Assembly: GCF_016903815.1 (NCBI RefSeq)
Contig: NZ_CP069972.1
Reading direction: 5' to 3' (one strand)
Length of the DNA stretch: 64,000 bases
Origin: Escherichia coli
GTDB taxonomy: Bacteria; Pseudomonadota; Gammaproteobacteria; Enterobacterales; Enterobacteriaceae
The position numbers and the translations under genes were made by a program. Below the pieces are notes generated by a model. That model made no database searches. It was not told the DNA's origin and was given only the letters and a program-made list of their open reading frames with translations. Positions 2,146-42,659 of this stretch are shown here, one piece after another (the first letter of the stretch is position 1; every line of letters begins with the position of its first letter).

Positions 2146-4383
2146 ATGTCGCCATCCCCCTTAATTAAATCCTGTGTGGCCTTTGCCCATACGCAATTCT
2201 ATTCCGGAGTTACTGTGAAAATTTTACTTCGCGCACTCTGTGCAGGCCTTGCTATATCCTCACTGCCGGCAATGGCTTCAGTGACCTATCAGGATATTGT
2301 GTCTGCCGCAACCAATCCTGACGATCTGTCTCGCCAGGCGCTGGTCACGATATTCGGTGATGTAGTCACCAATCCACTGTCAACCAGCGCCCCCACTCTG
2401 ATCGGAAGCATGTTCGGGGCGTTCAACAGTATCATCGCCGTACTTGCCGTTGTCTGGTTTATGTTCATTGGTATCCGTCATGTTGTGCGTTCGGGGCATC
2501 AGGGACAGGTATTCAGCACCGGACGCGATATCGTCGGCACACTGAGTGTCGTTGCAGGTTTTCTGATGATCGTTCCAACCGGAAATGGCTGGAGTATCGC
2601 TCAGCTCATTATGTTATGGGGCGCATCGATAATGGGGGTTGGGTCCGCCAATGTGATGGTGCAACTTGCCGCTGATAATATCGCAAATGGTTATTCAATG
2701 ACTGTACAGCCAGTTCAGGCATCCACACGAACAGCAGCGCGTGGCATTTTTGAAATGGAACTGTGTAAGTATGCGGTTAACGCAGGACTAAATGATTTTA
2801 ATCAGACGGTCAAATCCTCGACTTCACTGATGACAGAATCAGCTAAAACCGCCAGTGGTAATTACACTGTCACGGTATCCAATGGCAGCGGTATCTGTGG
2901 TTCAGCCAGCCTGTCAGTAGAAGGAAACGGAACAACAGATCAATCGACGATTGGAAAATTCTTTAATCCCTTCAGTAAAAACGAATACAGCGGTGTTATC
3001 TCAGCACAACGTGCAGCCATGGATAATATGATTAGCGACATGGACAACGCTGCCAGTGAGTTTGTGACAACATTTCTGGAAAAAAGAAATTCTGGCAACG
3101 GAACATTGCCGGATATCGAGACACGGATTCAGAGAGCAGCCGATGAGTATGAACGCGCTGTACAAAAATCGCTACCTATTGATAACGGAGAACAATCCAG
3201 GAAAGAAGCTCTCAAGTCTTATCTCACAACCTATGGATGGGTGACGCTTGGCGCGTGGTATCAGACCTTTGCCACTGCTAACCAGCGTCTGGCAGAGCTG
3301 GCTGACAGAGCTCCAGCTGTAACTTCAATGTCATCACTTGGGGAAGTTGGCGATACTGATTTATTTAGTGCTGTTATGGGGGCATACAAGACTCAATTAC
3401 AGAACTCCACATATACTCCAACGATAGGAACGATAACAACTCAAGATGAAAGTAATGCAGCTAATAGCACAGACCCACAAAGTGTGGTCATGAAAAGTAT
3501 AGCGCCAACCATATTAAAATGGACAAACCAAGCTGCTACTGAATGGTCAGGAACAGGAACAACCAGCAACCAAGTTAACCCATTAATTAAGATGAAAAAC
3601 ATCGGCGATTATACATTGGGTACAACAGAAATTCTCTGGACAGGATATACAACTGTCAGAGTTCTCGCGACAATGGGTGATAACTCTATTTTCGGAAAGG
3701 CTGTTAATTTGTTCTCTGGATTACCTAAAGGATTTGTTGCTCTGCTGGATGCTGCAGCTCCCCCAATATATTTCTTGTTGTTCCTGTTGTTTTGTGCGGG
3801 TTTTTCCTTATCAATTTACCTACCATTTATACCATTCATTTTCTGGATGACAGGCATTGGGAACTGGATAGTAAGCGTATTAATAGGATGCACCGCCGGG
3901 CCTCTGTGGGCAGCAACACATCTAGGAACATCAGAGGACAGAGGAAGTCGAGCAGCTTACGGATATATATACTTAATTGACAGCATGATAAGACCACCTC
4001 TCATGGTATTCGGTTTCTTTTTTGCCTCTGTCGCCATCATTGCCGTCGGCACAATATTAAACTCACTGTTTGGCGCAGCACTAGTTAACGTACAGGTAAA
4101 ATCATTAACAGGGATATTCAGCCTTGCCGGGTTCCTGCTAATTTACGCCCGTATGTGTACAACGTCTGTAGCTGCAATATTTGCTTTACAAGCATATCTT
4201 CCTGACCATGTTATCAATTTCTTGGGTGGTAGAGATGGTGTAAATACTCTTGGCAACCTCACCTCATCAGTAAAAGATATTTTTGCAGGTTCTAATAGAA
4301 ATATTAGACACAGCCCTGGAGTTAGAGAGGACAGACTAAAAAATGTCACAAAGGATGATAATAAAGATGGAATAAAAGGATAA
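2146..4383 (+). CDS. traY: TraY-like polytopic inner-membrane transfer protein (entry-exclusion target in IncI1)
   Basis: 745-aa ORF with many hydrophobic segments in N- and C-terminal thirds; alternative GTG start at 2215 has a better RBS (GGAG) and gives a signal-peptide-like N-terminus; excA-like gene directly downstream. Confidence 0.55.
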   Translation: MSPSPLIKSCVAFAHTQFYSGVTVKILLRALCAGLAISSLPAMASVTYQDIVSAATNPDDLSRQALVTIFGDVVTNPLSTSAPTLIGSMFGAFNSIIAVLAVVWFMFIGIRHVVRSGHQGQVFSTGRDIVGTLSVVAGFLMIVPTGNGWSIAQLIMLWGASIMGVGSANVMVQLAADNIANGYSMTVQPVQASTRTAARGIFEMELCKYAVNAGLNDFNQTVKSSTSLMTESAKTASGNYTVTVSNGSGICGSASLSVEGNGTTDQSTIGKFFNPFSKNEYSGVISAQRAAMDNMISDMDNAASEFVTTFLEKRNSGNGTLPDIETRIQRAADEYERAVQKSLPIDNGEQSRKEALKSYLTTYGWVTLGAWYQTFATANQRLAELADRAPAVTSMSSLGEVGDTDLFSAVMGAYKTQLQNSTYTPTIGTITTQDESNAANSTDPQSVVMKSIAPTILKWTNQAATEWSGTGTTSNQVNPLIKMKNIGDYTLGTTEILWTGYTTVRVLATMGDNSIFGKAVNLFSGLPKGFVALLDAAAPPIYFLLFLLFCAGFSLSIYLPFIPFIFWMTGIGNWIVSVLIGCTAGPLWAATHLGTSEDRGSRAAYGYIYLIDSMIRPPLMVFGFFFASVAIIAVGTILNSLFGAALVNVQVKSLTGIFSLAGFLLIYARMCTTSVAAIFALQAYLPDHVINFLGGRDGVNTLGNLTSSVKDIFAGSNRNIRHSPGVREDRLKNVTKDDNKDGIKG

Positions 4384-36910: not shown

Positions 36911-38181
36911 TGTTTGCACTGGCTGATATCAACAGTTTCTACGCCTCATGTGAAAAAGTTTTCCGCCCGGACCTTCGCAACGAACCGGTCATCGTACTCA
37001 GCAATAACGATGGCTGTGTGATCGCGCGCAGCCCGGAGGCAAAAGCCCTTGGCATCAGAATGGGGCAGCCCTGGTTTCAGGTGAGACAAATGCGCCTGGA
37101 GAAGAAAATACATGTATTTTCCAGCAATTATGCGCTGTACCACAGCATGAGCCAACGGGTTATGGCTGTTCTGGAGTCGCTTTCTCCCGCAGTTGAGCCC
37201 TACTCAATTGATGAAATGTTCATTGATTTGCGGGGGATAAATCATTGCATCTCTCCGGAGATTTTTGGTCATCAGCTCAGGGAACAGGTAAAGAGCTGGA
37301 CAGGACTCACCATGGGGGTGGGCATTGCGCCTACAAAAACGCTGGCTAAAAGTGCCCAGTGGGCAACAAAGCAATGGCCACAGTTTTCCGGTGTGGTCGC
37401 GCTGACGGCAGAAAACCGTAATCGGATCTTGAAGCTACTGGGGTTGCAGCCAGTTGGTGAGGTCTGGGGAGTAGGACGCAGACTGACGGAAAAGCTGAAT
37501 GCGCTGGGTATTAACACAGCACTGCAGCTGGCGCAGGCTAACACGGCATTCATCCGGAAAAACTTCAGCGTCATTCTTGAGCGTACGGTACGCGAACTCA
37601 ACGGCGAGTCCTGCATATCTCTGGAAGAAGCACCGCCGGCAAAACAGCAGATTGTCTGTAGTCGCAGTTTTGGTGAACGAATCACAGACAAAGATGCCAT
37701 GCACCAGGCTGTTGTTCAGTATGCAGAGCGGGCCGCAGAGAAACTACGTGGGGAGCGTCAGTATTGCCGGCAGGTGACGACATTTGTACGGACATCCCCC
37801 TTTGCAGTAAAAGAACCCTGTTACAGCAATGCCGCTGTGGAAAAGCTTCCATTGCCCACACAGGACAGCCGGGACATTATTGCCGCAGCATGCAGAGCGT
37901 TAAACCATGTCTGGCGTGAAGGGTACCGCTATATGAAGGCAGGTGTCATGCTGGCTGATTTCACACCATCGGGTATAGCGCAGCCGGGATTATTTGATGA
38001 AATCCAGCCCCGTAAAAACAGTGAAAAGTTAATGAAAACACTCGATGAACTGAACCAGTCGGGAAAAGGGAAAGTGTGGTTTGCGGGGCGAGGAACCGCC
38101 CCTGAATGGCAAATGAAACGGGAAATGCTTTCTCCTGCGTATACCACCAGATGGACAGATTTGCCAGTAGCCCAGTTATGA
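36910..38181 (+). CDS. impB: ImpB, UmuC-like Y-family translesion polymerase (423 aa)
   Basis: N-terminal MFALADINSFYASCE typical of UmuC/DinB family; overlaps impA stop. Confidence 0.85.
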   Translation: MFALADINSFYASCEKVFRPDLRNEPVIVLSNNDGCVIARSPEAKALGIRMGQPWFQVRQMRLEKKIHVFSSNYALYHSMSQRVMAVLESLSPAVEPYSIDEMFIDLRGINHCISPEIFGHQLREQVKSWTGLTMGVGIAPTKTLAKSAQWATKQWPQFSGVVALTAENRNRILKLLGLQPVGEVWGVGRRLTEKLNALGINTALQLAQANTAFIRKNFSVILERTVRELNGESCISLEEAPPAKQQIVCSRSFGERITDKDAMHQAVVQYAERAAEKLRGERQYCRQVTTFVRTSPFAVKEPCYSNAAVEKLPLPTQDSRDIIAAACRALNHVWREGYRYMKAGVMLADFTPSGIAQPGLFDEIQPRKNSEKLMKTLDELNQSGKGKVWFAGRGTAPEWQMKREMLSPAYTTRWTDLPVAQL

Positions 38182-38202
38182 ATATGTAATCCACCCATAA
38201 TA

Positions 38203-38276
38203 TTGTTATCCTGTTATCCTGCTATCTTGTTATCTTGTTATCTTGTTATCTTGTTATCTTGTTATCTTGTTATCTT
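38203..38276. repeat. Array of about nine tandem 8-bp TTGTTATC repeats upstream of parA (centromere-like)
   Basis: Direct reading; followed by imperfect palindromes (TTAACAACTTGCTAAGTTGTTAA). Confidence 0.65.
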
Positions 38277-38400
38277 AATTAATCTATAAATCAAATACTT
38301 AACAACTTGCTAAGTTGTTAACATAACAAAAATAATTGCATGGTTCGCGTTCAGATGGCAATATTAAGTTGTTAACTTAACAGCTTAATATGAGGCTATA

Positions 38401-39027
38401 ATGATAATAGTATTAGGTAGTCAAAAGGGTGGGGTAGGTAAAAGTACACTGGCGGTATCTATAGCTGCGTATCTGATGTCACTAGGCAATAGAGTGATTA
38501 TTGTCGACGCAGATGACCAGAAATCAGTATTAACCTGGTACAACAATCGCCCTGAAGATCTCCCTCATATTCCGGTTACAGGCGCGACAGGTAACATCAA
38601 AGCCATGTTAAAGGAACACGAAAAATCCTATGATTTTGTTATTGCAGACTGTGCTGGCCGTGATAGCGCAGAAATGCGTAGTGGATTGATGGCCGCAGAT
38701 GTATTCATTTCTCCTTTGCGCCCATCTCAGATGGACCTGGATGTTGTGCCTCATACATGCTCCGTTTTTACAGCAGCAAAAGATTTTAATGAGGATGTTC
38801 GGGGATATCTCGTTTTAAACATGACGCCCACAAATATGTTTGTTAATGAAGCCAATGAGGCAGCTGAAGTACTTAAGGATTACCCTGAAATGCATCTGGC
38901 AAACTCCCGGGTATGTGATCGTAAAGCACATCGAGATGCTTGGGCCGAATCAATGACAATTTTTGAAACGCAAAATGATAAAGCCCAGCAAGAAATCGAA
39001 GCGTTAGTGAAAGAGGTTATTCTGTGA
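38401..39027 (+). CDS. parA: ParA-family partition ATPase (208 aa)
   Basis: Deviant Walker A GSQKGGVGKST. Confidence 0.75.
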   Translation: MIIVLGSQKGGVGKSTLAVSIAAYLMSLGNRVIIVDADDQKSVLTWYNNRPEDLPHIPVTGATGNIKAMLKEHEKSYDFVIADCAGRDSAEMRSGLMAADVFISPLRPSQMDLDVVPHTCSVFTAAKDFNEDVRGYLVLNMTPTNMFVNEANEAAEVLKDYPEMHLANSRVCDRKAHRDAWAESMTIFETQNDKAQQEIEALVKEVIL

Positions 39028-39326
39028 GAAATAGAGCAAACACTTCACCTCGTGACGAGGCAGCATTTATTAACGGTGGCACGGCTGGCCTTGATAATAC
39101 CAAAAAGTCATCAGATAAATCATCGGTTGTAAGCAAAGCAAAACCAGTGAGTATTTCTTTTTTTGAAGAAAACCTAAAAGACATTGATGCCCTTATAACG
39201 GCTGAGATGGTTTCAGGTAAAGGCAGAGTGAATCGTTCTGATGTTGTCAGGGCGGCGGTAGAAGCACTTAAAACACTATCAAAAACAGAGGTATCACGAT
39301 TGATAGCAGAAGTAAAACAAAGATAA
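39024..39326 (+). CDS. Small centromere-binding partner of ParA (100 aa)
   Basis: Overlaps parA stop; small basic protein; flanked by repeat arrays. Confidence 0.5.
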   Translation: MRNRANTSPRDEAAFINGGTAGLDNTKKSSDKSSVVSKAKPVSISFFEENLKDIDALITAEMVSGKGRVNRSDVVRAAVEALKTLSKTEVSRLIAEVKQR

Positions 39327-39330
39327 CACC

Positions 39331-39396
39331 TTGTTATCTTGTTATCTTGTTATCTTGTTATCTTGTTATCTTGTTATCTTGTTATCTTGTTATCTT
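39331..39396. repeat. Second array of about eight tandem TTGTTATC repeats downstream of the par genes
   Basis: Same 8-bp unit as 38203-38276. Confidence 0.65.
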
Positions 39397-39451
39397 CAAT
39401 GTATTTTAGGATGACCTATGTTGAATAGAACCTAAAACAAAACAAATATTA

Positions 39452-39743
39452 ATAGGGGTCCGCTTGGAAAAGGGAAATTTTCCCACGCTAAGAGAATTGA
39501 GTTGAACGAGTGGTTACATCCAGGCCAGCTAACTCACTGAACGTAAAGGCTGTACGAAATGTTCCGGCCGTCCGATAACCGTTTGGCTTACTTCCGTACA
39601 TTCCCTTGCGTAGATGTACAGAATTGTACGATTTCGGACACCAAAACCGCTGTTGTCCCGCCATTCTGGCGATTCCTGAAAGTCCTTTGACTAAAAAATA
39701 GTCTTAACGTGGTTTATTTTCCGAATTCCAAGCGGACCCCTAT
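39452..39743. mobile_element. MITE-like element (about 290 bp) with perfect 18-bp terminal inverted repeats
   Basis: ATAGGGGTCCGCTTGGAA at 39452-39469 and its exact reverse complement at 39726-39743; no ORF inside. Confidence 0.4.
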
Positions 39744-39764
39744 CAGGCCTGCCGTGGGGATTTT

Positions 39765-39926
39765 GTGGTGCGTCTCGACGGCAGCACCTGTCTGCAGTTA
39801 TGGAATAAAGAAGGCAGGGTGGTACGCCGGGAGGGCGATCCGCTGGAAGTGGCGCAGTGGCTGCTGGCCTGTCATGACGCAGGAATAGAAGTTCGCGTAC
39901 AGATAAATGAAAGTGCCGCTCCGTAA
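39765..39926 (+). CDS. Possible small ORF or 3' remnant of a disrupted gene next to the MITE-like element
   Basis: Open frame ending VRLDGSTCLQLWNKEGRVVRREGDPLEVAQWLLACHDAGIEVRVQINESAAP; only GTG starts available; frame runs into the element's right inverted repeat. Confidence 0.25.
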   Translation: MVRLDGSTCLQLWNKEGRVVRREGDPLEVAQWLLACHDAGIEVRVQINESAAP

Positions 39927-39945
39927 GAACACGCCTGTGCACGGT

Positions 39946-40293
39946 TTACACATCATCCCATGGTGGCAGCCGGTTAACTTTCCTGCGCCACCAGTGGAAA
40001 GAGGCCATGCACAGTCCGAACAAAAAACCCCCCGTGATACTTATAATAATGGCCTCACCTGCCACCATTCCTGACGGCCCCCAGTAGATAAACCACATTG
40101 CACATCCCCAGGAAATGCCCCATAAGCCCCCCGTCAGCACCGTGACCTGCCAGAACGGCATAAAGGGTAATGGCGGAAGCCGGATACCCAGCCGCCATAG
40201 AATACGCAGAAGAGGAGGGGCATAATTGCTCCGCCACATCTTTTTGCTGTCCATCAGGGCAATGGCCCGGGCTTTTTTCTGCTCAAAGGTCAC
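39946..40293 (-). CDS. Hypothetical membrane protein (115 aa)
   Basis: GTG start with SD GGAGG 7 nt upstream; two or three TM helices; adjacent to the colicin immunity gene. Confidence 0.45.
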   Translation of the reverse strand: MTFEQKKARAIALMDSKKMWRSNYAPPLLRILWRLGIRLPPLPFMPFWQVTVLTGGLWGISWGCAMWFIYWGPSGMVAGEAIIISITGGFLFGLCMASFHWWRRKVNRLPPWDDV

Positions 40294-40421
40294 AGGAGCA
40301 CCTCCGTTCCATGATGTAAACGTGACACAGCTTATTGTTATTGATTATTATTATCATGCTGTGGTTATGTTGTCATGCATCAGTACACTGACAAAAGTGC
40401 AAAAGAAAGGAAAACAGGCAG

Positions 40422-40757
40422 ATGAACAGAAAATATTATTTTAATAATATGTGGTGGGGATGGGTGACGGGGGGATATATGCTGTATATGTCATGGGATT
40501 ATGATTTTAAATACAGATTACTGTTCTGGTGTATTTCTCTCTGCGGAATGGTTTTGTATCCAGTTGCAAAATGGTATATTGAGGATACAGCTCTGAAATT
40601 TACCCGGCCTGATTTCTGGAACAGCGGTTTTTTTGCTGATACACCTGGAAAAATGGGATTGCTTGCTGTTTATACGGGTACTGTTTTCATATTATCTCTT
40701 CCGTTAAGTATGATATATACTCTTTCTGTTATTATAAAAAGGCTGTCTGTAAGATAG
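40422..40757 (+). CDS. iia: Colicin Ia immunity protein (111 aa)
   Basis: MNRKYYFNNMWWGWVTGGYMLYMSWDY...; convergent with and immediately downstream of the colicin gene; 111 aa as for Ia immunity (recollection). Confidence 0.8.
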   Translation: MNRKYYFNNMWWGWVTGGYMLYMSWDYDFKYRLLFWCISLCGMVLYPVAKWYIEDTALKFTRPDFWNSGFFADTPGKMGLLAVYTGTVFILSLPLSMIYTLSVIIKRLSVR

Positions 40758-40778
40758 ACAGCCTGTCTTATATTTTAT

Positions 40779-42659
40779 TTAAATACCCCAGAACTTATTC
40801 GCTTTTTCCACAAGCGATTCATCAATCAGCGCACCGGTGACAGCCATCAGTAAACCATACCCGATAATGCCTAAAGCGCTTCCGGTAAGAATACTGAAGA
40901 CCAGTGCAACAAGAGCCGTTGCGGCATTGCCTGCTATAATGGCTTCTGTTTTAACAAAAAGAGGACGCCAGTTCTCTGTCCGGACAGCCTTACCAAACTC
41001 AGTGATCCAGTCAGCAAGACTTGTAAATTTTCCTGCATATCCCAGTCCCCGACTGAATCTGTTCAGATTAGACGATATATCAGACAGCTTCACAGACTCA
41101 AGGGCTGCGGCAATCGCTGCACGATCTTTTGCATTAATTTTTTTGTTAATGTCAGCCCGGTACTTTTCATACGTTTTTAATGCCTCTTCAACATTACGTA
41201 TTTTCTTCCCTTTAGCCTGCCCGGCCATCTCTCTGGCTAACTGCTCAGCTTTTGCACCATATTTTTCTGAAACTGATTTCAGGAACTCTGTTGTGAAATT
41301 AATTGCGTCTTTCGTTTCCTTCAGTTCATCCTGTTTTCTTTTCTCTTCCGCTATCTTCTGATTGATGCCGGCAAGCTGGTTACGGATATTCTCTTTTTCC
41401 TTCAACAGGGCATTAAGAGCGTCATTTGCATGCTTTTGCTCATTTGTTCTGGCACTGAGGTTATTTCTCGCCGAATTTACCGCAGATTCAGCAGAGGTGA
41501 TTTTATTTCTGGCATCAAGCAATCTTTGCCGTAACTTATCCCATTCAGCAACTTCAGCATTATAAATTTTCTTGTCACCTTCCACATCCTCTGTCACCAC
41601 CGGATTCCGGTCATTCAGAATATTGCGTTTATAGTCCAGACCGGAATGGGTCAGAAGATAATTCAGGTTTGCACGGTTATCGATGACTGCGCTGGTTGTG
41701 ATTTTTATCGTACCGGCAAATCTCGGATCACCGCTCACAACAATAGAATGATTTGTTGATGAACGCCCCGGGAATTTTTCAGGGGAAACTATCGTTTTGC
41801 CGTCAGGCGTGTTTTTCTGTTGCGTCAGCTGTTGTTCAGCTCTGGTTAATGCATTACGGGCCGTGTTAAGCGATTCCGTCACTGAACTGAGTTTATTCCG
41901 GGCCTCTGAAATGGCCCTGTCATTCCGTGTCTGCTGCCCGAGCAGACGGGCCTGTTGTGCATCAAGAACGGCAAGGGCTGCCCCGCCATTTTTTTCCAGC
42001 TCTGACAACCGCGTGTCCAGAATACCTTTTCTGCGCTCGTATTCAGCAAGCATATCAGCGGCCTTCTTGTCTGCGTTCTGCGCATCCTTCTGCCGTTTTT
42101 CAGCCTGTTCGATTAACGACCTGGCCTCCCGGGGAGATATACGAAGAGAATCAGCATCAGCAAAGAGCATCCGGCTCTCTGTATGCAGCCGGAGGGCATC
42201 ATATCCGGCGATTTCAGTACGGAATCCGTATTCTCTCAGCTCTGCCTGCAGGAGTCTGAACTCCTGTCGTGTAATATCAGCGGCATCTGCGTTTCCGGCA
42301 CGGAGTGTTTTCAGTGTGTTTTCATCTTTTTCCCTTGCAGCAATCGCCGCAGAGAGGCGTTTTCCGGCTTCAGTACGCTTATTCTCATTCTCTTTCTGCT
42401 GCGCGCTGAGCGTGTTTTTGTACGCTGTGATTTCCTTGTCCCTTTTTTCGATATCACTTCGGGTTGGGGAATCATCAACCCACTCGTTTCCGCCCCAGAT
42501 GGTTTTGTTCCCGAAGGAACTCCATGCAGGCGGGGTACCATGAAAGACATCGACACGTGGAGGGTTTACATAAATATCAACGGCCATAATTTCATGGCCA
42601 TCTGAATCATACCCCAGCGATTCTGCACCGGGATTTGTAATACGTACAGGGTCAGACAT
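40779..42659 (-). CDS. cia: Colicin Ia, pore-forming (626 aa)
   Basis: MSDPVRITNPGAESLGYDSDGHEIMAVDIYVNPPRVDVFHGTPPAW... N-terminus and C-terminal hydrophobic hairpin of the Ia/Ib family; Ia vs Ib call rests on the immunity protein. Confidence 0.85.
   Translation of the reverse strand: MSDPVRITNPGAESLGYDSDGHEIMAVDIYVNPPRVDVFHGTPPAWSSFGNKTIWGGNEWVDDSPTRSDIEKRDKEITAYKNTLSAQQKENENKRTEAGKRLSAAIAAREKDENTLKTLRAGNADAADITRQEFRLLQAELREYGFRTEIAGYDALRLHTESRMLFADADSLRISPREARSLIEQAEKRQKDAQNADKKAADMLAEYERRKGILDTRLSELEKNGGAALAVLDAQQARLLGQQTRNDRAISEARNKLSSVTESLNTARNALTRAEQQLTQQKNTPDGKTIVSPEKFPGRSSTNHSIVVSGDPRFAGTIKITTSAVIDNRANLNYLLTHSGLDYKRNILNDRNPVVTEDVEGDKKIYNAEVAEWDKLRQRLLDARNKITSAESAVNSARNNLSARTNEQKHANDALNALLKEKENIRNQLAGINQKIAEEKRKQDELKETKDAINFTTEFLKSVSEKYGAKAEQLAREMAGQAKGKKIRNVEEALKTYEKYRADINKKINAKDRAAIAAALESVKLSDISSNLNRFSRGLGYAGKFTSLADWITEFGKAVRTENWRPLFVKTEAIIAGNAATALVALVFSILTGSALGIIGYGLLMAVTGALIDESLVEKANKFWGI

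Follow-up and report, generated by a model that had tools for sequence, protein, structure and literature searches.

In the 64,000-nucleotide stretch of Escherichia coli DNA analysed here (the window; contig NZ_CP069972.1 of RefSeq assembly GCF_016903815.1), a geneless element of 286 bp at positions 39455-39740 lies between a par locus and the remains of a gene that has lost its 5' part. Taking its identity and its local history as one joint reading, we are largely confident that it is a non-autonomous Tn3-derived inverted-repeat miniature element (TIME; Szuplewska 2014; PMC4133298) and that its mismatched surroundings were produced by deletions beside it. To its left, a ParA-like gene (38401-39027) and a partner gene of 100 aa (39024-39326) are followed by an array of 8-bp repeats, by par-locus DNA reading ...AATATTAATA, and then by the element. 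The array consists of about nine tandem 8-bp units (CTTGTTAT) at 39322-39409, immediately after the 100-aa gene; it is probably the centromere-like site of the par locus and lies outside the element, about 55 bp upstream of it. To the right, a 3' gene stump of 61 codons plus stop (39741-39926, plus strand) corresponds in frame to the C-terminal end of a longer gene. Where it is intact, this gene encodes a product of 196 aa (R64; WP_000194575.1) or 169 aa (IncF plasmids; WP_000194542.1). The full-length product of this gene has no significant Pfam domain. A first-pass annotation of the window, made from its sequence without database searches, had marked a 53-aa open reading frame (ORF) at 39765-39926, which is part of the C-terminal stump.

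Boundaries, terminal repeats and autonomous relatives

The first-pass annotation described the element, which is present once in the 64-kb window, as a miniature inverted-repeat transposable element (MITE)-like insertion of about 290 bp with perfect 18-bp terminal inverted repeats. The repeats are there as claimed: ATAGGGGTCCGCTTGGAA (39452-39469) recurs as a perfect reverse complement at 39726-39743. An inverted 18-nt pair as exact as this is expected by chance within 400 nt about 4e-4 times per 64-kb window, and in a repeat-finder search the arms reach 47 nt (39452-39498 and 39697-39743; 79% complementarity). The extent, on the other hand, had to be revised. In comparisons with plasmid records, homology of the right flank starts at 39741, matches to the left flank only stop at 39454-39458, and copies of the element in other contexts all begin with GGGG and all finish with CCCC, which together place the element at 39455-39740 with a length of 286 bp rather than 292 bp. 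The outer ATA and TAT of the 18-nt palindrome are thus flanking bases that are complementary by chance. Seven E. coli-type copies align with a mean column identity of 97%.

The functional repeat is a 38-bp Tn3-type terminus that reaches beyond the 18 perfect bases. On the plus strand the element runs from its tnpR-side end, the left inverted repeat (IRL), to its tnpA-side end, the right inverted repeat (IRR). IRL (GGGGTCCGCTTGGAAAAGGGAAATTTTCCCACGCTAAG; 39455-39492, plus strand) follows the Tn3-family pattern GGGG...ACGYTAAG; IRR, read inward on the minus strand (GGGGTCCGCTTGGAATTCGGAAAATAAACCACGTTAAG; 39703-39740), is likewise of Tn3-family type; and the two agree at 30 of 38 positions. The first-pass annotation had been unable to assign the repeats to a family. 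They are recognisable as Tn3-family ends. The IRL of the window matches the tnpA-proximal ends of three autonomous elements (L028, L050 and L081) at 36 of 38 positions, and the consensus IRL of the E. coli copies does so at 37 of 38, while the IRR of the window matches one end at 36 of 38 (L073:5499) and another at 34 of 38 (L076:3442). Just inside IRR, the sub-terminal sequence resembles the 3' end of the tnpA gene (LYKKQS*) of autonomous relatives.

These relatives came from a scan of one genome per species for GGGGTCCGCTTGGAANNNGGAAA, which returned 82 stretches, nearly all from Enterobacterales, with others from Vibrio and Shewanella. Many of the stretches contain an ORF of about 1000 aa that reads into the repeat, and four such ORFs score 1176-1213 bits on the NCBIfam model NF033527 (Tn3 family transposase; cutoff 500). 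Beside tnpA lies a divergent ORF of 192-197 aa, which is a serine resolvase by Pfam (Resolvase, 6.7e-38; HTH_7, 1.4e-11); NCBIfam gave this TnpR only sub-threshold serine-recombinase matches, and its identity was decided by Pfam. Autonomous Tn3-family transposons with ends of the form GGGGTCCGCTTGGAAAACGGAAA... include those of Pantoea sp. IMH (L028) and Vibrio furnissii (L050) and a third at L037. Versions of the L028-type TnpA that are 99.9% identical occur on Klebsiella, Enterobacter and Citrobacter plasmids, and 342 PLSDB records, mostly from the same three genera, encode a TnpA at least 90% identical to that of L028.

The L028-type transposons share with the element of the window ends that match at 36-37 of 38 positions and a tnpR-tnpA intergenic region homologous to its core. 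They differ in being at least 4 kb long and in encoding TnpA (994 aa), TnpR (192-197 aa) and cargo, whereas the element encodes nothing and its core has diverged from theirs, among other places at the centre of the putative crossover site. No homologue of TnpA or TnpR is encoded anywhere in the 64-kb window, so the copy found there is solo and immobile. In the draft genome of Photorhabdus cinerea DSM 19724 (L011-L022), at least 10 contigs carry the same terminal repeat some 105-127 nt in from an end, often at both ends, which points to a related transposon in high copy number at which the assembly breaks.

A non-coding interior with a res-like core

The interior was first described as having no ORF. 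Strictly, a mechanical ORF of 58 aa can be read on the minus strand (39488-39664). Stop codons and frameshifts interrupt it in homologues, so the interior is non-coding all the same. A tblastn comparison of TnpA with the element, aimed at a possible tnpA remnant, gave nothing significant (E=0.67), and an Rfam scan of 38000-41000 gave no match at E<=1. A consensus scan of 39300-40000 for promoters and terminators found none, which leaves outward transcription driven by the element without support.

Full-length homologues with 69-76% identity were found in Citrobacter, two Xenorhabdus species, Cedecea and an Enterobacterales metagenome-assembled genome, and from these we built an nhmmer profile of the interior. 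In the autonomous transposons, this profile finds a match solely in the gap that separates the divergent genes tnpR and tnpA. The matches at L028 (6739-6843), L050 (13360-13466), L037 (8125-8230), L044, L080 and L019 have E values of 1e-9 to 4e-11, with one further match at L032 (8.7e-6), and they are bracketed by TnpR and TnpA. In Tn3-subgroup transposons this gap is well established as the res site (Gomi and Yano 2026; PMC13367494). In the window, the homologous segment, a res-like core, occupies 39538-39644 on the plus strand, in an orientation that agrees with the tnpA-type right end.

Within the core, a 26-bp dyad at 39615-39640 (TGTACAGAATT-GTAC-GATTTCGGACA) is tnpA-proximal and aligns with TGTACGAAACCGACCGGTTTCGGTCA in the autonomous elements; we placed it as putative res site I, the crossover site, by its position, with the res of Tn3 and gamma-delta as model. 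A second dyad of about 31 bp at 39570-39600 (GTCCGATAAC...ACTTCCGTACA) aligns with TATCCGAAAC...CACTTTCGGACA in the autonomous elements and would correspond to site II. An extra half-site, TGTACGAAA (39551-39559, plus strand), may mark the region of site III and belongs to a block, GGATGTACGAA, that is invariant in two alignments. The core thus has two clear dyads and one half-site, a third full dyad not being defined. Conservation is 0.92 in the half-sites, 0.93 in the terminal repeats and 0.80 in the rest of the interior, with a permutation P of 0.0004 for half-sites that were picked post hoc.

On this evidence the element retains the cis-acting parts of a transposon alone: two 38-bp ends and a res-derived interior. 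Its structure is that of a parent transposon without tnpA on one side of res and without tnpR and cargo on the other. A Tn3-type TnpA supplied in trans would bind the ends and transpose the element replicatively ('paste-and-copy') into AT-rich targets of 5 bp, after which a cognate serine resolvase, TnpR, could resolve cointegrates at the res-derived interior. That the TnpA and TnpR of the relatives act on the element, and the assignment of the res subsites, we infer from these similarities.

Distribution and local history

Matches to the element are present in 2187 PLSDB records and cover nearly its full length in 568. Among 5426 complete E. coli genomes, 1368 (25%) contain the element or its remnants and 539 (10%) a near full-length copy, the placements being on plasmids in 1768 cases and on the chromosome in 34. 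Nearly every match, among those listed from RefSeq and PLSDB, has no annotated feature under it. Copies lie beside a toxin-antitoxin pair in pINV, in a small ColE2 plasmid, in IncF plasmids, beside cvi in ColV plasmids, and in the par region of I-complex plasmids. TIMEs are expected to measure 50-500 bp and to carry no transposase or conserved gene; at 286 bp the element lies within that range, and the combination of Tn3-type ends, small size, absence of genes, occurrence at many sites and autonomous relatives with matching ends places it within the structural definition of a TIME. The original description of a MITE-like non-autonomous element was therefore sound.

Junctions were compared in 54 near-full copies with usable flanks, a metagenome scan included. 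They comprise 41 distinct junction pairs, with 37 distinct left flanks and 33 distinct right flanks. TIMEs as a class are expected to produce direct repeats of 5 bp, rarely 6 bp, when they insert. The AT fraction is high at exactly the five bases that adjoin each end (left, 0.81-0.86; right, 0.73-0.91) and drops at the sixth position (0.27 and 0.24). Each junction bears a Tn3-type target footprint, although the paired pentamers usually differ: perfect 5-bp duplications flank the element in two of the 41 pairs (L008, TATAA; L084, TAAAT), where shuffled pairing expects 0.40 (P=0.04). Several copies have one flank in common and the other different, and in one recombinant trio (L009, L155 and L163) the flanks switch exactly at the terminus of the element and not at putative site I, so that the trio lends no support to res-mediated exchange. 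Shared and unshared flanks together with a switch at the terminus fit later end-precise rearrangement or exchange between copies better than an absence of transposition.

The copy in the window also has unlike flanks. On its left, par-locus DNA ends in the pentamer TAATA (39450-39454); on its right, TATCA (39741-39745) is an AT-rich, target-like pentamer inside the disrupted gene, and there is no target-site duplication, in agreement with the first-pass annotation. At two loci with the intact gene (L004 and L005), the sequence reads ...GGCATAACG, TATCA, GGCC in succession, that is, ...GGCATAACG directly followed by TATCAGGCC..., while the 5' part of the gene and a small gene upstream of it occur nowhere in the 64-kb window. 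The junction between par and the element recurs in L001, in L003, in plasmid pO104_H7 (L096, where it is 1 nt shorter) and in two metagenome loci (L110 and L148). In pO104_H7 this junction is followed, beyond the element, by the small upstream gene without its first 31 nt and then by the intact 196-aa gene, and 631 bp present there (L096 2787-3417) are missing from the window. The par regions of pO104_H7 and the window are 94% identical and the copies of the element about 97%, from which it follows that the element probably lay beside par already in the common ancestor.

To judge from these comparisons, the simplest account would be that the element inserted beside par long ago and that nested deletions then set out from its right terminus. 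The insertion would have taken place just downstream of par in an ancestor of these I-complex plasmids. A later loss beside its right end would have removed the 631 bp, comprising the rest of the small upstream gene and the first approximately 135 codons of the 196-aa gene, and would have left the right end abutting TATCA within the gene without a target duplication. Intramolecular replicative transposition of a Tn3-family end gives nested adjacent deletions, and we infer that a transposition event of this kind, involving the right end, produced the deletion, and not recombination between two copies.

Several observations weigh against this reading of the element as a res-bearing TIME with a deletion-based history. 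The layout in pO104_H7 also has no duplication (TTAAT on one side, ATGAG on the other) and so is not a pristine insertion. Only two of 41 junction pairs have perfect duplications against 0.40 expected by chance, AT-rich pentamers being recurrent, which is thin evidence for simple transposition. Homology to the res region spans only about 105 of the 210 interior bases and does not include element positions 39-85 and 190-235, and the half-sites were chosen after the alignment had been viewed, which makes their permutation P of 0.0004 a post hoc figure. Finally, the centre of putative site I is GTAC in the miniature element and GACC in the autonomous elements, and the resolvases of those autonomous elements might not recombine the GTAC-centred site.

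The alternative that survives best is recombination, homologous or res-mediated, between two copies of the element, one beside par and the other at TATCA in the gene, with deletion or exchange of the intervening DNA, which would leave mismatched flanks and the same final products as adjacent deletion; we regard it as possible but the less probable route. It would account for the frequent shuffling of flanks in which one is shared while the other differs, and for the AT-rich 5-nt footprint at both flanks of nearly all copies, as if these had once been normal insertions; moreover, the element has a res-like core, and hybrids joined at position 172, the putative site I centre, exist. Against it, the reciprocal junction, in which TATCA after the 5' part of the gene would meet IRL, was not found in PLSDB, where the only matches were three-piece ones of the pO104_H7 type; in the one trio that can be resolved, the switch is at the terminus and not inside the element; and the same left junction with different right junctions, as in pO104_H7 and the window, is the pattern of adjacent deletions from one end.

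The first-pass annotation had proposed something simpler, a MITE insertion into a small gene that became disrupted or chimeric. It was right that the gene on the right is disrupted and that its frame reaches the boundary of the element, since 39741-39926 is in frame with the C-terminus of the 196-aa gene, and the right junction lies at an AT-rich pentamer flanked by G/C, as is typical of Tn3 targets. A single insertion is nevertheless very improbable as an explanation: there is no duplication, the left flank is unrelated par DNA, the 5' part of the gene and its upstream neighbour are absent from the window, and in pO104_H7, where the element sits at that same junction with par, the gene is intact. 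The search for an empty site in related plasmids, which that annotation had recommended, succeeded on one side, with uninterrupted alleles of the right-hand gene in R64 and IncF plasmids, and gave no true empty site for the left junction. An IncK2 plasmid (L002, CP070396.1) was considered as a par-side empty site and rejected, as the DNA after TAATA there is a resistance region with a truncated TnAs1-type transposase of the Tn3 family. That resistance region, from position 3061 onward, starts with GGGGG at the exact base after par...TAATA at which the element starts in the window, and reflects either a hot spot for Tn3 ends or a replacement mediated by the left end of the element.

Even less probable is that the element is the remnant, deleted in situ, of a full-length transposon and not a mobile 286-bp unit. 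Its structure is that of a parent transposon with two internal deletions, as such a remnant would have; the internal deletion endpoints, however, are identical in dozens of contexts and in homologues of about 70% identity from other genera, which indicates that the deletions occurred once, long ago, and that the miniature unit spread afterwards. We give hardly any credence to the element being a conserved palindromic regulatory site or structured RNA of the par locus or neighbouring genes, the competing view that the first-pass annotation had itself named: it sits some 55 bp beyond the par-associated repeat array and its long inverted repeat could fold, but flanking sequences of about 40 unrelated kinds surround the identical 286-bp unit (among them those in pINV, ColE2 and ColV plasmids and in other genera), uninterrupted alleles of the right-hand gene exist, Rfam is blank at E<=1, no promoter- or terminator-like sites were found, and the ends match those of transposase-bounded transposons.

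Relation to named TIMEs and hybrid forms

We compared the element with the sequences of IS101, IMU, MITESen1 and TIME244 given in Table S2 of Gomi and Yano 2026 (PMC13367494), where copies of named TIMEs are recognised at an identity of at least 95%. Global identity over the whole element was 0.51-0.66, which excludes it as a copy of any of the four. A search of full-text literature for the terminal-repeat string returned no paper, and the TIME literature that we found covers IS101, IMU, MITESen1, TIME244 and the Pseudomonas TIME1-4 only, with the element absent from it. Judged against the four named enterobacterial TIMEs and this literature, the element is apparently an unnamed TIME.

By the arrangement of its sequence, the functionally closest known element would be IS101, which appears to have the same design. 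IS101 is a 209-bp TIME of pSC101 that is mobilised by the TnpA of Tn1000 (gamma-delta) and has a functional res site (PMC4133298; PMC13367494). Both are miniature and geneless, with 38-bp Tn3-family ends and an interior that corresponds to a res of the Tn3-subgroup type, with divergent tnpR and tnpA. They differ in length (286 against 209 bp) and in sequence: beyond the family-level pattern of the repeats the two are unrelated, the repeats agreeing at only 18-21 of 38 positions and the global identity being 0.51. The parent lineage also differs, being that of the L028-type transposons and not gamma-delta, and the res function of the element is putative.

IMU, the integron mobilization unit of 288 bp (Poirel 2009, cited in PMC13367494), is nearly equal to the element in length, also resides on Enterobacterales plasmids, and has the closest repeats among the named TIMEs, with 31 of 38 positions shared between the IRR of the window and the IRL of IMU. 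Its interior is not homologous, however, and the whole-element identity of 0.62-0.66 comes mainly from the ends. IMU has no recognised similarity to res and occurs in 0.06% of genomes (PMC13367494). TIME244 (MITEEc2) and MITESen1 are, like the element, TIMEs of enterobacterial plasmids with Tn3-family repeats (best agreement 30/38 and 29/38, the former between the IRR of the window and the IRL of TIME244). Copies of these two, like published TIMEs in general, are frequently found without direct repeats, and TAATA is a target of MITESen1 too (PMC13367494). The element is set apart from both by an identity of about 0.6, and its res region is of a Tn3-subgroup-like lineage, unlike the putative res of TIME244, which is of the Tn21/Tn1721 type (PMC13367494).

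The TIME class and its mechanism are well known, the understanding of transposition is unchanged by this element, and its value is practical. The four named enterobacterial TIMEs together occur in 3.5% of genomes (PMC13367494), and the element or its fragments, at 25%, are commoner by roughly an order of magnitude. Most copies sit at junctions of unrelated DNA. Once the element is recognised, many breakpoints that would otherwise be puzzling in I-complex, IncF, ColV, ColE2 and pINV plasmids can be accounted for, including that of a common IncI1 variant in which the colicin region has been deleted from inside the element. With its res-like core, it would be the second TIME after IS101 to have both of the cis sites for complete replicative transposition. 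Tentatively, it could be an undescribed res-carrying TIME, by far the most prevalent in E. coli plasmids, and a general breakpoint at which par, colicin and toxin-antitoxin modules are reshuffled; on the same speculative footing, it may have remodelled I-complex, IncF and Col plasmids through end-precise deletion, flank exchange and hybrids with IS101, unseen by annotation. In itself the element is an ordinary relic of mobile DNA, noteworthy for being common, for having been overlooked and for its retained res-like core.

The IncI1 variant just mentioned is a common layout (L003, NZ_KJ866866.1, joint at 3144-3147) in which element positions 1-88 are joined to a point near 42643 of the window (39542 to 42643), just upstream of the start of the colicin gene. 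The rest of the element, the gene stump, the DUF6404 gene and the immunity and colicin genes are lost, and a short CGTA common to the two sides of the joint points to illegitimate recombination.

Hybrids and fragments of the element recur on other plasmids. At about 3824-4115 of L094 (CP061227.1), IS101 positions 1-191 (92%) are fused to element positions 172-286 (95%), and at about 3104-3246 of L093 (NZ_CP006635.1), between pemK and IS1, a gamma-delta/IS101-type terminus is fused at the same element position. This joint coincides with the centre of putative res site I, at which GTACG(T/A)TTTCG is common to the two partners, and the 115-bp right-hand fragment that starts at position 172 appeared in 15 of 60 sampled rows, from E. 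coli and Klebsiella plasmids. Another form, cut at position 206, is found at about 3950-4206 of L095 (NZ_CP026589.1), in a context near IS26, rmtB and blaTEM regions, and recurs among the sampled rows of Klebsiella, E. coli and Salmonella plasmids. Just upstream of its left end in L095 lie a MITESen1-like terminus (GGGGCAGTTTGGATATCGAAAATTATTGTAC), TATAA and a short duplicate of the element's own terminus, an arrangement that suggests nested or tandem TIME insertions.

Bacteriocin modules often adjoin the element. In the window, a colicin Ia/Ib-type gene, its immunity gene and a DUF6404 gene occupy 39946-42659; elsewhere the neighbours are colicin E2/E3 operons (L007), cvi with colicin B/M genes (L009) and cvi (L010), and a bacteriocin neighbour is also present in L094. 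This adjacency may only reflect which plasmids carry the element.

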